From Escherichia coli (GTDB lineage: Bacteria > Pseudomonadota > Gammaproteobacteria > Enterobacterales > Enterobacteriaceae): a DNA stretch of 5,545 bases. The notes beneath the pieces were generated by a model. It was given only the letters and a program-made list of their open reading frames with translations, was not told the origin of the DNA and ran no database searches. Of this stretch, positions 1 to 5,545 are shown one piece after another (the first letter of the stretch is position 1; each line of letters begins with the position of its first letter). The position numbers and the translations under genes are program-made. Location: assembly GCF_003334385.1 (NCBI RefSeq), contig NZ_QOWN01000081.1, one strand, 5' to 3'.

Positions 1-1
1 T

Positions 2-77
2 TGGTGGGTCGTGCAGGATTCGAACCTGCGACCAATTGATTAAAAGTCAACTGCTCTACCAACTGAGCTAACGACCC
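2..77 (-). tRNA. lysV: tRNA-Lys (anticodon UUU), 76 nt including encoded 3' CCA
   Basis: Reverse complement of 2..77 reads GGGTCGTTAGCTCAGTTGGTAGAGCAGTTGACTTTTAATCAATTGGTCGCAGGTTCGAATCCTGCACGACCCACCA. This gives a cloverleaf with anticodon loop CUUUUAA (anticodon UUU), a T-arm GGTTCGAATCC and a terminal CCA. It matches the E. coli tRNA-Lys sequence as I recall it. Position in the Val-Lys operon beside gltX suggests lysV. Confidence 0.93.
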
Positions 78-80
78 GAG

Positions 81-156
81 TGGTGGGTGATGACGGGATC
101 GAACCGCCGACCCCCTCCTTGTAAGGGAGGTGCTCTCCCAGCTGAGCTAATCACCC
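81..156 (-). tRNA. valU: tRNA-Val (anticodon UAC), 76 nt including encoded 3' CCA
   Basis: Reverse complement of 81..156 reads GGGTGATTAGCTCAGCTGGGAGAGCACCTCCCTTACAAGGAGGGGGTCGGCGGTTCGATCCCGTCATCACCCACCA. The anticodon stem-loop is CCUCC-CUUACAA-GGAGG (anticodon UAC), with T-arm GGTTCGATCC and terminal CCA. Only 3 bp (78..80) separate it from tRNA-Lys. The symbol is uncertain: it is the promoter-proximal copy (valU position) but also the copy directly abutting lysV (valY position in K-12 as I recall). Confidence 0.92.
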
Positions 157-173
157 CCGCTGTGTGGAGTCGC

Positions 174-201
174 ATTATAGGGAGAGTTCAAAATGAGTCA
201 A
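174..201 (-). promoter_or_regulatory. sigma70 promoter of the tRNA-Val/Lys operon, stringent-type
   Basis: Minus-strand reading gives TTGACT (201..196), a 16-nt spacer, TATAAT (179..174), then the GC-rich discriminator GCGACTCC. The mature tRNA-Val 5' end lies 17 nt downstream of the -10. An A/T-rich stretch upstream (about 203..245) could hold UP-element or Fis sites. Confidence 0.7.
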
Positions 202-321
202 CGCATTTTCTAAAGAAATTGTTCGTTCGTCGTAAATTTAAGCAAGATGATCGCAAAACAGACCGTGTTGCGCAATTTGTCAACGAAAACAATAATGCGT
301 AAGGTAGAAACCCGAACTACA

Positions 322-349
322 TTGAGGAATCAGGCGGGAGTGATAGAAT
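322..349 (+). promoter_or_regulatory. candidate gltX promoter (one of possibly several)
   Basis: TTGAGG (322..327), a 16-nt spacer, then TAGAAT (344..349) preceded by an extended -10 TG at 341..342. The predicted start near 356 would give a roughly 58-nt leader to the gltX ATG. An alternative candidate is AATAAT at 291..296. From memory, gltX has multiple promoters; none can be confirmed from sequence alone. Confidence 0.35.
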
Positions 350-414
350 ATCGCCCACTTAATTTTTCCAGGATTTGCCGGTTGTCGGCATCTTTCTAAA
401 CGTAAGGCCATTTC

Positions 415-1830
415 ATGAAAATCAAAACTCGCTTCGCGCCAAGCCCAACAGGCTATCTGCACGTTGGCGGCGCGCGTACTGCTCTTTACTCCTGGCTTTT
501 TGCACGTAACCACGGCGGTGAGTTCGTGCTGCGTATTGAAGACACCGATCTTGAGCGTTCCACGCCGGAAGCTATCGAAGCCATTATGGATGGCATGAAC
601 TGGCTGAGCCTGGAGTGGGATGAAGGTCCGTACTACCAGACCAAACGTTTTGATCGCTACAACGCGGTGATCGATCAGATGCTGGAAGAGGGCACTGCTT
701 ATAAATGCTATTGCTCTAAAGAGCGCCTGGAAGCGCTGCGCGAAGAGCAAATGGCGAAAGGTGAGAAGCCGCGTTATGACGGTCGCTGCCGCCACAGCCA
801 TGAGCATCATGCTGATGATGAACCGTGTGTTGTACGTTTTGCTAACCCGCAGGAAGGTTCTGTTGTTTTTGACGATCAGATCCGTGGTCCGATCGAGTTC
901 AGCAACCAGGAACTGGACGATCTTATTATCCGCCGTACCGATGGTTCCCCAACCTATAACTTCTGTGTGGTTGTCGATGACTGGGATATGGAAATCACCC
1001 ACGTTATCCGTGGCGAAGACCATATCAACAACACGCCACGCCAGATCAACATTCTTAAGGCCCTGAAAGCGCCGGTGCCGGTTTACGCGCACGTTTCTAT
1101 GATCAATGGCGATGACGGTAAAAAACTGTCCAAACGTCACGGGGCAGTCAGCGTAATGCAGTATCGTGATGACGGTTATTTGCCAGAAGCACTGCTGAAC
1201 TATCTGGTGCGTCTGGGCTGGTCCCACGGCGATCAGGAAATCTTCACTCGTGAAGAGATGATCAAATACTTCACTTTGAATGCCGTCAGCAAATCTGCCA
1301 GTGCGTTCAACACCGACAAGCTGCTGTGGCTGAACCATCACTACATTAACGCGCTGCCGCCGGAGTATGTTGCTACTCACTTACAGTGGCACATTGAGCA
1401 GGAAAATATCGATACCCGTAACGGCCCGCAGCTGGCTGATCTGGTGAAACTGCTGGGCGAACGCTGCAAGACGCTGAAAGAGATGGCACAGAGCTGCCGT
1501 TATTTCTACGAAGATTTTGCTGAGTTCGATGCCGACGCCGCGAAAAAACATCTGCGTCCGGTAGCGCGTCAGCCGCTGGAAGTGGTTCGTGACAAACTGG
1601 CCGCGATTACTGACTGGACCGCTGAAAACGTTCATCACGCTATTCAGGCGACGGCGGATGAGCTGGAAGTGGGTATGGGTAAAGTTGGTATGCCGCTGCG
1701 TGTCGCCGTAACCGGTGCGGGGCAGTCTCCAGCACTGGATGTTACCGTTCACGCAATTGGTAAGACCCGCAGTATCGAGCGTATCAACAAAGCGCTGGAT
1801 TTTATTGCTGAACGCGAAAATCAGCAGTAA
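415..1830 (+). CDS. gltX: glutamyl-tRNA synthetase (GluRS), class I aminoacyl-tRNA synthetase, 471 aa
   Basis: A 471-codon ORF with ATG at 415 and a Shine-Dalgarno AAGG 7 nt upstream. The translation carries the class I HIGH-type motif (HVGG, codons 16-19) and a KMSKS-type motif (KLSKR). A Cys-x-Cys-x24-Cys-x-His zinc-binding signature (C98, C100, C125, H127; nt 706..795) is present, as expected for E. coli GluRS. Length and N-terminus ([19 protein letters not shown]) match E. coli GltX as I recall. Confidence 0.97.
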
Positions 1831-1847
1831 TTAGCGTGTAAAAAGAT

Positions 1848-1881
1848 AAACGGCAGGAGATAATATCCTGCCGTTTTTTAT
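1848..1881. terminator. bidirectional intrinsic terminator between convergent gltX and yfeD
   Basis: A perfect 7-bp GC-rich stem, CGGCAGG (1851..1857) pairing with CCTGCCG (1867..1873), encloses a 9-nt loop. It is preceded by an A-tract (1848..1850) and followed by TTTTTT (1874..1879), so either strand sees a hairpin followed by a U-tract. It sits between the gltX stop (1830) and the yfeD stop (1882). Confidence 0.75.
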
Positions 1882-2274
1882 TTATGCTGATTCGTCAATA
1901 TCGAGACGGGCGAGGAAATTGCGAATTCCTTCACGTGACAAAAATTGCGCGACTTTTTCCTGCTCAATGTCTGTCATATTATCTATCGCGTTGATGATTT
2001 GTCGATACGCCGGGGCGCGTGCTCCAGGAGCGTATTCAGCAATTCTCTCTTCAGCTTCCATCAACATTGGTGTGTTATGGAAGGCTGGCGTGTTCTGAAT
2101 AAACTCGCAAACTTGCGTATCGACCAGAATAAGTCTGGCACGACCGCCTTTCACGCCGGGAAATTTTTCCGTTTTCCAGCCTTTTTCTCTGATCCAACGG
2201 TTAACAGTTTGTTTAGCCACACCGAGGCATTCAGCCAGTTCTTCGGTGGTCATTTTATTGCGTAATCTTTTCAT
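1882..2274 (-). CDS. yfeD: small putative DNA-binding protein (helix-turn-helix, YfeC/YfeD family, DUF1323-like), 130 aa
   Basis: A 130-codon ORF on the minus strand. Its N-terminal roughly 55 residues (MTTEELAECLGVAKQTVNRWIREKGWKTEKFPGVKGGRARLILV) look like a helix-turn-helix and are clearly paralogous to the adjacent upstream ORF. The start lies 1 nt after the yfeC stop, suggesting translational coupling. There is no obvious Shine-Dalgarno; an alternative start is at M8. Confidence 0.85.
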   Translation of the reverse strand: MKRLRNKMTTEELAECLGVAKQTVNRWIREKGWKTEKFPGVKGGRARLILVDTQVCEFIQNTPAFHNTPMLMEAEERIAEYAPGARAPAYRQIINAIDNMTDIEQEKVAQFLSREGIRNFLARLDIDESA

Positions 2275-2275
2275 A

Positions 2276-2635
2276 TTATTTGCTATCGCGAATCCCTAAG
2301 CGTTGTAACAATCCGATAATCCCTTCCCGCAGAAGCAAGGATGTAAACTGTTTTTGTTCAACTGGCGTCATCTCTTTCGCCAGTGTCACCAGCAATACTT
2401 CAAGCGGCGCATCACCAGAAAGGGCAGGCGCTTCTCCCTGACCTTCTGGACGTTCAGCATTGCGAATATATTCACGAACCTGTTCATTGACGTGAACCAG
2501 TCGGGCTTTGCCACCCTGGACGCCAGGTTTTGGTGACGTTGTCCAGCCTTCCTTGCGTACCCATTTATTAATGGTCTGGCGGCTATAGCCGGTCAGTCTG
2601 GCAAGTTCATCTGGTGTCATCCTCTCCTTGAACAT
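2276..2635 (-). CDS. yfeC: small putative DNA-binding protein (helix-turn-helix, YfeC/YfeD family, DUF1323-like), 119 aa (114 aa if it starts at M6)
   Basis: A 119-codon ORF on the minus strand with a Shine-Dalgarno AGGGA 6 nt upstream of the ATG at 2635. An alternative start at M6 (2620) is preceded by AAGGAG at short spacing. The N-terminus (MTPDELARLTGYSRQTINKWVRKEGWTTSPKPGVQGGKARLVHV) is paralogous to YfeD. Confidence 0.85.
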   Translation of the reverse strand: MFKERMTPDELARLTGYSRQTINKWVRKEGWTTSPKPGVQGGKARLVHVNEQVREYIRNAERPEGQGEAPALSGDAPLEVLLVTLAKEMTPVEQKQFTSLLLREGIIGLLQRLGIRDSK

Positions 2636-2794
2636 AACAATTCCCTGAATGTATGTGGGTCTATTAGTAGTTCATTTTATAACACCACTTTACAGGAAAC
2701 CGTGACATGAATAACTACTGAATGCGAGCGGTTTTCCAAAATTGTTCATTTGCCTGATTTTTCAGCGATTGAAACTACACGTTGCAATTTGCCG

Positions 2795-2823
2795 TTGACA
2801 CATTCGGGCGGAATTCATATGAT
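2795..2823 (+). promoter_or_regulatory. sigma70 promoter of the tRNA-Ala (alaW-alaX) operon, stringent-type
   Basis: Consensus -35 TTGACA (2795..2800), a 17-nt spacer, then -10 TATGAT (2818..2823), followed by the GC-rich discriminator GCCGCCC. The first tRNA-Ala starts about 33 nt after the -10. Confidence 0.72.
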
Positions 2824-2855
2824 GCCGCCCGTCAACTCGACAAGCTTTACGTGAC

Positions 2856-2931
<76 letters not shown>

Positions 2932-2970
2932 AATTTTGCACCCAGCAAACTTGGTACGTAAACGCATCGT

Positions 2971-3046
<76 letters not shown>

Positions 3047-3055
3047 AATTTCCAA

Positions 3056-3081
3056 CCCTCGCTGCAAAGCGGGGGTTTTTT
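3056..3081 (+). terminator. intrinsic terminator of the alaW-alaX operon
   Basis: Stem CCCTCGC (3056..3062) pairs with GCGGGGG (3069..3075) over 7 bp, including one G-U pair, around a 6-nt loop TGCAAA. It is followed by TTTTTT (3076..3081) and sits 10 nt after the alaX CCA. Confidence 0.8.
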
Positions 3082-3254
3082 GTCTCTGCTTTTTGCCGCT
3101 TTTGTAATACAGTCTACGTCCGGGTTAGTGCCGCCTGGTGAAAGCATCATTGGATGAAAAATCGGCAACAGGCTGGCCCCCTGTTTGCTTCGCGATGCGA
3201 ATAAACTTATTATTTGTGTGCCTGAAAACCCCGATCAGTGAGAGTAGTGTACTC

Positions 3255-5444
3255 ATGTTTGTGGAGCATAACCTGATAAAAAATATCAAGATATTCACAC
3301 TAGCGTTTACGCTCACCGTGGTACTTATTCAGCTATCCCGTTTTATTTCGCCACTTGCCATTATCCATTCCAGTTATATCTTTCTGGCGTGGATGCCACT
3401 GTGCGTAATGCTGTCAATCTTGTTTATCTTTGGCTGGCGCGGTGTCGTTCCCGTTTTATGCGGGATGTTTTGCACCAATCTGTGGAACTTTCATCTCTCT
3501 TTTTTACAGACTGCGGTCATGCTCGGTAGCCAGACGTTTGTCGTGTTGTGTGCCTGCGCAATATTACGCTGGCAGCTGGGGACGCGTTGGCGTTATGGAT
3601 TGACCAGCCGATATGTCTGGCAACGTCTGTTCTGGCTTGGTTTGGTGACGCCGATCGGCATCAAATGCAGCATGTATCTTGTGGGGAGCTTCTTTGATTT
3701 CCCGCTAAAGATATCCACCTTTTTCGGCGATGCGGATGCCATTTTCACGGTCGTTGATTTGCTAAGCCTTTTCACCGCTGTGCTGATTTACAACATGCTT
3801 TTCTACTATCTCACTCGCATGATTGTAAGTCCCCACTTTGCGCAGATATTGTGGCGCAGGGATATCGCTCCGTCGTTGGGCAAAGAGAAACGCGCATTTA
3901 CCTTAAGCTGGCTGGCAGCGTTAAGCGTGCTGCTACTTCTGTTGTGCACACCTTATGAAAACGACTTTATTGCCGGTTACCTGGTACCCGTTTTCTTCAT
4001 CATCTTTACCCTCGGGGTCGGTAAGCTTCGCTATCCGTTTTTAAATCTCACCTGGGCTGTTTCAACGCTTTACCTTCTGAATTACAACCAGAACTTTTTG
4101 CAAGGGGTGGAAACCGAATATTCGCTGGCATTTATTCTTGCGGTGCTGATTTCCTTTAGCGTTTGCCTGCTCTATATGGTGCGCATTTATCATCGCAGTG
4201 AATGGCTTAATCGCCGCTGGCATTTGCAGGCGCTGACAGATCCGTTAACGCTCCTACCCAACTTTCGTGCGTTGGAACAAGCGCCGGAGCAAGAGGCGGG
4301 CAAGAGTTTTTGCTGCCTGCGCATTGATAATCTTGAGTTTATGAGTCGTCATTACGGCTTAATGATGCGCGTTCACTGTATCCGCTCAATTTGCCGTACG
4401 CTGCTGCCGTTGATGCAGGAAAACGAAAAGTTGTATCAATTGCCGGGTAGTGAACTGCTGTTAGTGCTGAGCGGGCCGGAAACGGAAGGGCGACTCCAGC
4501 ATATGGTTAACATCCTGAATAGTCGGCAAATTCACTGGAACAATACCGGGCTGGATATGGGCTATGGTGCTGCCTGGGGGCGTTTTGATGGAAATCAGGA
4601 AACCCTGCAACCCTTGTTGGGGCAGTTAAGCTGGCTGGCGGAGCAATCCTGCGCACATCATCATGTGCTGGCGCTGGATAGCAGAGAGGAGATGGTTTCC
4701 GGGCAGACCACTAAACAGGTGCTATTGCTGAATACCATTCGCACGGCGTTAGATCAGGGTGATTTGCTGCTCTACGCCCAGCCAATTCGCAACAAAGAGG
4801 GTGAAGGTTATGATGAGATCCTCGCGCGACTGAAATATGACGGCGGCATTATGACCCCGGATAAGTTTCTGCCCCTTATTGCTCAGTTTAACCTTAGCGC
4901 GCGTTTTGATTTGCAAGTGCTGGAATCCTTGTTGAAGTGGCTGGCAACACACCCTTGCGACAAAAAAGGACCGCGCTTTTCAGTCAATTTAATGCCGCTC
5001 ACGCTGCTGCAAAAGAATATTGCCGGGCGGATTATTCGTCTGTTTAAGCGTTATCACATCTCCCCGCAGGCGGTCATTCTTGAGATCACCGAGGAGCAGG
5101 CGTTTTCTAACGCAGAAAGCAGCATGTACAACATCGAGCAGCTGCATAAGTTTGGTTTCCGGATTGCGATTGATGACTTTGGCACCGGATATGCCAACTA
5201 CGAACGGTTAAAGCGTTTGCAGGCTGATATCATCAAAATTGATGGCGTCTTTGTGAAAGATATTGTCACGAACACGCTGGATGCGATGATTGTGAGATCA
5301 ATTACCGATCTGGCGAAAGCGAAGTCATTGAGTGTGGTCGCGGAGTTTGTCGAGACGCAACAGCAGCAGGCGCTATTGCATAAGCTCGGGGTGCAATATC
5401 TGCAAGGGTATTTGATTGGTCGCCCGCAGCCATTAGCTGATTAA
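3255..5444 (+). CDS. pdeA: c-di-GMP phosphodiesterase: N-terminal multi-pass membrane (MASE-type) domain, degenerate GGDEF domain, EAL domain; 729 aa
   Basis: The long ORF ends at TAA 5442..5444. I chose the ATG at 3255 (MFVEHNLIKNIK...) because it gives the 729-aa length I recall for E. coli PdeA/YfeA. The frame is open back to a GTG at 3138 and an ATG at 3195, so the start is uncertain. The N-terminal roughly 320 aa are strongly hydrophobic, consistent with multiple transmembrane segments. The middle domain resembles GGDEF but has PGSEL (nt 4443..4457) where GG[DE]EF is expected. The C-terminal domain carries EAL-type motifs: EIL at 4815..4823 in place of EAL, plus EITEE, DDFGTGYA, KIDG, EFVE and QGYL. 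Confidence 0.88.
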   Translation: MFVEHNLIKNIKIFTLAFTLTVVLIQLSRFISPLAIIHSSYIFLAWMPLCVMLSILFIFGWRGVVPVLCGMFCTNLWNFHLSFLQTAVMLGSQTFVVLCACAILRWQLGTRWRYGLTSRYVWQRLFWLGLVTPIGIKCSMYLVGSFFDFPLKISTFFGDADAIFTVVDLLSLFTAVLIYNMLFYYLTRMIVSPHFAQILWRRDIAPSLGKEKRAFTLSWLAALSVLLLLLCTPYENDFIAGYLVPVFFIIFTLGVGKLRYPFLNLTWAVSTLYLLNYNQNFLQGVETEYSLAFILAVLISFSVCLLYMVRIYHRSEWLNRRWHLQALTDPLTLLPNFRALEQAPEQEAGKSFCCLRIDNLEFMSRHYGLMMRVHCIRSICRTLLPLMQENEKLYQLPGSELLLVLSGPETEGRLQHMVNILNSRQIHWNNTGLDMGYGAAWGRFDGNQETLQPLLGQLSWLAEQSCAHHHVLALDSREEMVSGQTTKQVLLLNTIRTALDQGDLLLYAQPIRNKEGEGYDEILARLKYDGGIMTPDKFLPLIAQFNLSARFDLQVLESLLKWLATHPCDKKGPRFSVNLMPLTLLQKNIAGRIIRLFKRYHISPQAVILEITEEQAFSNAESSMYNIEQLHKFGFRIAIDDFGTGYANYERLKRLQADIIKIDGVFVKDIVTNTLDAMIVRSITDLAKAKSLSVVAEFVETQQQQALLHKLGVQYLQGYLIGRPQPLAD

Positions 5445-5545
5445 CAGGCGTAAAAAAACCGGGGAATTATCCCATAAGCGCTAACTTAAGGGTTGTGGTA
5501 TTACGCCTGATATGATTTAACGTGCCGATGAATTACTCTCACGAT

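Follow-up and report, generated by a model that had tools for sequence, protein, structure and literature searches.

The window, that is, the whole stretch of 5,545 nucleotides analysed here, is the promoter-proximal end of an ordinary E. coli valU tRNA operon, in which one visible tRNA-Val gene is followed directly by a tRNA-Lys gene. We judge it rather likely that in the source genome, too, Lys comes straight after the first Val; that genome would then have a non-canonical array. Since the window stops 1 nt past Lys, within the repeat array, how many Val genes the source genome has is not readable from it, a point that the first-pass annotation had missed; its claim of two Val genes fewer than in K-12 thus holds for the visible window and not for the genome. 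What looks like a loss of Val genes comes either from recombination within a repeat array, which is common among strains, or from the assembly; neither amounts to new biology.

Read in the sense of the operon (minus strand), the left part of the window consists of a promoter, a 17-nt leader, tRNA-Val, CTC, tRNA-Lys and a single A, with which the window ends. The promoter (TTGACT-16-TATAAT, 174..201, divergent from gltX) matched the consensus at 11/12 positions in a scan of a region where two sigma-70-like sites were detected, as compared with 0.4 expected from shuffles, and it is identical to the MG1655 sequence upstream of valU. The leader, located between the -10 hexamer and tRNA-Val (157..173), ends with CACACAGCGG just before this first Val gene. 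The tRNA-Val(UAC) gene (81..156) and the tRNA-Lys(UUU) gene (2..77) were both called by ARAGORN and recognized by the Rfam model RF00005 with 65.9 and 79.2 bits, respectively (gathering score 29). They are separated by a 3-nt spacer (CTC, 78..80), and the single base past Lys, an A in the operon sense, is position 1. The Val gene is an exact match to all five K-12 copies (valU, valX, valY, valT and valZ), and the Lys gene to all six K-12 Lys genes. ARAGORN, Rfam and the promoter scan thereby bore out the positions first given for the promoter, the two tRNA genes and the 3-bp spacer. In addition, a promoter-like TTGAGG-16-TAGAAT with an upstream TG was noted on the plus strand at 322..349; shortly before the gltX start codon (415), positions 376..390 hold a GC-rich hairpin and, after it, a run rich in T.

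The remainder of the window anchors the locus. The gltX gene, coding for glutamate-tRNA ligase, occupies 415..1830 on the plus strand, according to the open reading frame list and to the gltX annotation in matching genomes, and is followed by yfeD, yfeC, the alaX-alaW pair and pdeA. Both tRNA-Ala(GGC) genes lie on the plus strand (alaX, 2856..2931; alaW, 2971..3046), which brings the number of tRNA genes in the window to four (Lys, Val and twice Ala), all called by ARAGORN and confirmed by Rfam. The pdeA gene was placed at 3255..5444 from the open reading frame list and the annotation of relatives, which start it at ATG 3255 (729 aa); the longest open reading frame in this region starts at GTG 3138 and codes for 768 aa (3138..5444). 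Exact matches to the 729-aa PdeA product were found in 417 assembly blocks.

The last 73 nt of the window (5473..5545, plus strand) are the left end of IS421, an IS186-like element of the IS4 family. The complete element measures 1,338 bp, starts at 5473 with the 23-bp terminal repeat CATAAGCGCTAACTTAAGGGTTG, is preceded by a 10-bp target duplication, GGAATTATCC (5463..5472), and lies in the interval from pdeA to nupC. In ETEC1730, TUM14664 and STK78-E, its transposase is annotated as IS4-like and of the IS421 family, while the site is empty in AS19. IS421 marks a sub-lineage, and the window stops inside it.

In MG1655, the genes annotated beside gltX are valU, valX, valY and lysV (b2401-b2404), separated by spacers of 44 nt (ACTACTTTATGTAGTCTCCGCCGTGTAGCAAGAAATTGAGAAGT), 46 nt (CTTTCTCGCCAGCTAAATTTCTTGTAAAAATGTGAAGTACCGAAGT) and 4 nt (CTTC). 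This reading agrees with the published lengths of the valU-operon spacers (PMC4176162). The K-12 arrangement given in the first-pass annotation, with three identical Val genes about 45 bp apart before lysV, was therefore correct, and alignment to the K-12 region and to relatives, as it had proposed, gave a reference locus with three Val genes, not one. Over 81..3587, the extent of the locus compared, the window is 100% identical to MG1655. The identity of 100% also holds for K-12 derivatives as far as position 5495, where the IS421 terminal repeat ends and their match stops. The window is E. coli of a K-12-like kind.

To describe the arrays of other genomes, tRNA-Val and tRNA-Lys genes are written below as V and K, with the length or the sequence of the spacers between them. 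When complete E. coli genomes were searched with a 226-nt query spanning the V-44-V-46-V interior (coverage of at least 80%), this core was found in 5,051 of 5,426 genomes (93%), across phylogroups; about 375 (~7%) were without it. Beyond E. coli, the last 25 nt of the leader joined to the first 20 nt of Val gave exact matches in 98 stretches from species-representative genomes of Enterobacterales. Among the stretches that could be read through, V-V-V-K after the window's leader was dominant, usually with CTTC, in at least 39 species representatives, including Citrobacter, Salmonella, Klebsiella, Kosakonia, Pectobacterium, Dickeya and others. Judged from this distribution, three Val genes are the old and normal state, which excludes a lineage that never carried three. 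To this last idea, put forward as one of the options in the first-pass annotation, we give next to no credence: nothing in support of it was found, apart from a few species representatives with two Val genes and one reduced-genome symbiont with a single V-K pair, and it is refuted by the 5,051 E. coli genomes, by the other Enterobacterales genera and by genomes with flanks identical to those of the window that carry three Val genes.

The array is nevertheless demonstrably plastic, and V-V-K, V-K, V-K-V-K and V-K-V-K-V-K forms were all observed among complete genomes. Two Val genes are present in the BW25113/J53-type array, V-46-V-CTTC-K by base-by-base reading in BW25113, a strain documented as having no valX (PMC5053530). 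ETEC1730 and L027 carry V-44-V-CTTC-K. Single pairs occur in 2020S05-235 (V-CTTC-K) and TUM14664 (V-ATTC-K); with GF4, Xuzhou21 and PapRG-06-5, the plausible single V-K genomes number at least five, a lower bound because the search joins pieces across the repeat and returns 100% coverage for one- and two-Val arrays alike. Finally, arrays in which Val and Lys alternate were read in STK78-E (V-CTC-K-135-V-CTTC-K, after the window's leader), 118UI (V-CTTC-K-51-V-CTTC-K) and AVS0753 ((V-CTTC-K-35)x2-V-CTTC-K).

The flanks do not predict the array. The canonical genomes L025 and L031 show zero mismatches to window 81..5545, yet they carry three Val genes and CTTC, while the hybrid STK78-E differs from the window's flanks by one base and the two-Val ETEC1730 by two. 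Reading the window's array off its closest relative was rejected for this reason, as the array varies among genomes with near-identical flanks.

In all related genomes that were read, a Rho-independent terminator follows lysV; in the window, it would lie beyond position 1. The DNA downstream of lysV exists in two E. coli forms, one with xapR-xapB-xapA-yfeN and the other with a small FlxA-like gene abutting yfeR, the latter in about 1,296 of the 5,426 complete genomes (L002 4541..4882; L004 4094..8392). In TUM14664, a K-12-like gltX side is combined with the FlxA-like one, and the tRNA array thus sits at a recombination or indel boundary. Two BL21 assemblies (CP081489 and CP083273) have a truncated or chimeric tRNA-Val of this array joined directly to rrf or mobB (L011 2144..2542 and L012 2022..2766), the outcome of a large rearrangement or else of an assembly error in the Val repeat.

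The two ends of the window bear on how it was assembled. At the left, positions 1..77 form a 77-mer beginning with the first base of a tRNA present in six copies (Lys plus 1 nt). The same 'tRNA + 1 nt' ending was found in at least nine independent drafts (L016, L034, L037, L040, L049, L063, L077, L091 and L120), several of which have SPAdes NODE names, while the ends of L017 and L019 lie 55 nt into Lys, as expected of a k=55 assembly. At the right, the window ends 101 nt past the pdeA stop and 73 nt into IS421. The window is thus probably a short-read contig from a k=77 de Bruijn graph, broken off at the first repeat which could not be crossed. In 254 of the 417 assembly blocks with exact PdeA, the gene is on a contig of only 2-10 kb, which indicates that short-read assemblies of this lineage routinely break around the locus.

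An internal control for the retention of tandem repeats is provided by the tRNA-Ala pair, itself a 76-nt repeat, of which the window has both copies. In metagenome contig L017 and in draft L032, the alaX/alaW pair is collapsed to one copy, a direct demonstration that short-read assemblies lose tandem tRNA copies. Furthermore, the base after the first Val gene is informative. It is C in the window and A in every common array of the sub-lineage: in the canonical L025, L026, L031 and L033, in the V-44-V arrays of ETEC1730 and L027, and in V-ATTC-K of TUM14664. In a k=77 graph, Val genes of 76 nt would share no node, and valU would be joined only to its true next base. Draft L034, of the same background, ends at leader-V-44-V+C, as expected. 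Since the window continues into C and the common forms into A, its source would differ from those forms. This argument depends on the assembler and the k-mer size that we infer for the contig, and so does the reality of the Val-Lys adjacency.

The CTC junction itself, which differs from the CTTC of the window's lineage and had also escaped the first-pass annotation, is less informative than it seems. The 155-nt block Val-CTC-Lys of the window is identical to valZ-CTC-lysY of the K-12 lysT operon; the reported K-12 spacers are CUUC for valY-lysV, CC for valT-lysW and CUC for valZ-lysY (PMC4176162). CTC is, however, the native valY-lysV junction of E. coli B, as opposed to CTTC in K-12-type strains. 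It also appears in short-read assemblies of backgrounds with CTTC in their long-read references, namely L017 and L032 (K-12-like), L023 (B2-like) and four Klebsiella contigs, the reference array of K. pneumoniae ATCC 13883 being V-46-V-CTTC-K. The spacers CC, CTC and CTTC, flanked by identical 76-nt genes, differ in steps of 1 nt, and a short-read de Bruijn assembler could merge them. CTC as proof of a lysT-operon origin was consequently rejected, and on the arrays compared this spacer is not diagnostic of where an array comes from.

As a single exact piece (window 1..216), leader-V-CTC-K was found in only 2 of the 5,426 complete genomes, AS19-RrmA- and STK78-E. The AS19-RrmA- sequence was obtained by scaffolding Illumina contigs with PacBio reads and filling the gaps; 76 tRNAs were reported for it (PMC5940949). 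Its lysT operon has only two Lys genes, K-132-K (NZ_CP027430.1 741965..742248; L035 21965..22248), as compared with the seven genes of K-12. In K-12, lysT is an essential unit, although the same tRNAs are also encoded by the valU unit (PMC11480407). With this mode of assembly, this tRNA count and a collapsed lysT operon, AS19-RrmA- was rejected as a true single-Val strain; the record contains collapsed Val/Lys arrays.

AS19-RrmA- illustrates the main competitor of a real Val-Lys adjacency, namely that the source array is canonical or has two Val genes and that the assembler either collapsed the Val copies or mis-threaded valU, by way of the shared 76-nt Val sequence, into another Val-Lys junction before halting at the next repeat. 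We hold this to be unlikely. Exactly leader-V-CTC-K is seen in this 'complete' genome made from Illumina contigs, and the same junction recurs in nine short-read metagenome contigs. These include L017, 99.93% identical to the window, L020, a valU/lysT chimera with 1.6x coverage, and the four Klebsiella contigs mentioned above. The references of such contigs have more Val genes and CTTC. Although the metagenome scan yielded contigs related to the window, it yielded no identical one. The base rate points the same way, as 93% of complete genomes are canonical, among them the zero-mismatch L025 and L031. However, the clear artefacts come either from apparent k=55 assemblies or from species with a native C after valU, such as Klebsiella, whose first spacer naturally starts with C and in which the artefact can thus arise. 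The end of the window fits k=77, and with A after valU in its sub-lineage, a false join of leader-Val to C should not form at this k-mer size; the tandem Ala pair was moreover resolved. We therefore prefer the reading in which Lys truly follows the first Val. It is based on the 77-mer contig-end signature common to at least nine independent drafts, on the retention of both tandem Ala copies, which L017 and L032 did not achieve, on the C after the first Val where the common arrays of the sub-lineage have A, on the real non-canonical arrays of BW25113, TUM14664, 2020S05-235, STK78-E, 118UI and AVS0753, and on the frequent occurrence of exact PdeA on short contigs, which was counted in its favour.

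A truly non-canonical array could have been reached in two ways, each involving homologous recombination between 76-nt tRNA genes of identical sequence. In one version, an unequal crossover between valU and valY would delete valX, valY and both spacers and leave a single Val-Lys pair. In the other, a sub-case that had not been considered in the first-pass annotation although it is a real third possibility, gene conversion from the lysT operon would exchange the interior of valU-valX-valY for a Lys gene and a lysT-type spacer. This would give a Val-Lys-Val-Lys array like that of STK78-E, with further tRNA genes beyond the window. We tentatively favour the single pair, at somewhat short of an even chance, while the hybrid seems to us quite improbable for this strain. 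Several observations do speak for a hybrid. The flanks of STK78-E differ from the window by one base and an IS4321 insertion only. Its 135-nt spacer agrees at 135/135 positions with the two spacers of that length in the lysT operon of the same genome, and the 135-nt spacers of this strain have two strain-specific SNPs with respect to K-12, common to the valU array and the lysT operon. Complete-genome hybrids also exist in 118UI (51-nt spacer) and AVS0753 (35-nt spacers), and the donor block V-CTC-K-135-V is present in the lysT operon of strain 2017.15.02CC. On the other hand, each of the three hybrids is a singleton among the 5,426 genomes, and complete genomes with a single V-K array are no rarer than those with a hybrid. 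Two assemblies with the XapR allele of STK78-E (L135 and L137) are canonical, and the IS4321 site is also where L137 breaks. Because of these canonical relatives, we rejected the idea that the window strain inherited the STK78-E hybrid; an independent hybrid event would thus be needed.

The 51-nt spacer of 118UI and the 35-nt spacers of AVS0753 correspond to the 3' parts of lysT-operon spacers, downstream of the pseudo-Lys 3' end that these contain. Strains differ in their lysT operon, which is modular and reads K-135-V-CC-K-135-V-CTC-K-146-K-132-K in STK78-E. The finding of lysT spacers within the valU array of three complete genomes suggests occasional gene conversion between the two operons. 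Other forms of the lysT operon were seen with K-51-V and K-33-K spacers (L005, L013, L014 and L015, 27000..29000); the long lysT spacers hold a pseudo-tRNA-Lys 3' end, and the short ones look like deletions between real and pseudo 3' ends. In STK78-E, IS4321, of the IS110 family, is inserted in yfeD at a position equivalent to window 2166..2170 (L009 4957..6286), and the independent draft L137 breaks exactly at this insertion point. Our literature search found no publication describing STK78-E.

Should the single pair be real, the number of Val(UAC) genes would fall from 5 to 3. With a hybrid array, the dosage would change from 5 Val(UAC) and 6 Lys genes to 4 Val and 7 Lys genes, the donor of the conversion being the lysT operon at a distance of 1.7 Mb; added to those of STK78-E, 118UI and AVS0753, such an array would mean that the two Val/Lys operons of E. 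coli swap blocks and undergo concerted evolution. Variation in the copy number of identical tRNA genes in tandem is already known as a frequent polymorphism. For users of genome records, tRNA gene counts and short inter-tRNA spacers at the valU locus are unreliable in short-read contigs, and collapsed Val/Lys arrays occur even in a record deposited as a complete genome, at least in that of AS19-RrmA-.

The valU unit works as in K-12. The sigma-70 promoter divergent from gltX drives a polycistronic tRNA transcript, and RNase P has been shown to cut such transcripts into single pre-tRNAs in the 3' to 5' direction, short C/U spacers being substrates of RNase P and not of RNase E (PMC4176162). As a CUC spacer is already functional at valZ-lysY, a processing defect would not be expected.

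Compared with known systems, the window is closest to the K-12 valU operon, with which it has in common the locus, the promoter and the sequences of the Val and Lys genes. It differs by its one visible Val, by CTC in place of CTTC and by the absence of the 44-nt and 46-nt spacers, differences that describe the window itself; valX, valY and the terminator of the K-12 operon are not within it. BW25113/J53, ETEC1730, TUM14664 and 2020S05-235 represent contracted versions with flanks like those of the window, of the type expected from unequal recombination between identical Val genes, but they keep the CTTC junction (ATTC in TUM14664) where the window has CTC. The Val-CTC-Lys junction is found at valZ-lysY of the lysT operon; that operon is located between cpoB and nadA and has 135- or 149-nt Lys-to-Val spacers upstream of Val, whereas the Val of the window is preceded by the valU promoter and gltX. 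The collapsed short-read arrays (AS19-RrmA- and L017-L024) have an identical leader-Val-CTC-Lys and contigs that end in or just after a tRNA; unlike them, the window keeps the tandem Ala pair and has an end that fits a larger k-mer. In the hybrids STK78-E, 118UI and AVS0753, the valU promoter is followed directly by Val-Lys, as in the window, and STK78-E also has the CTC junction.
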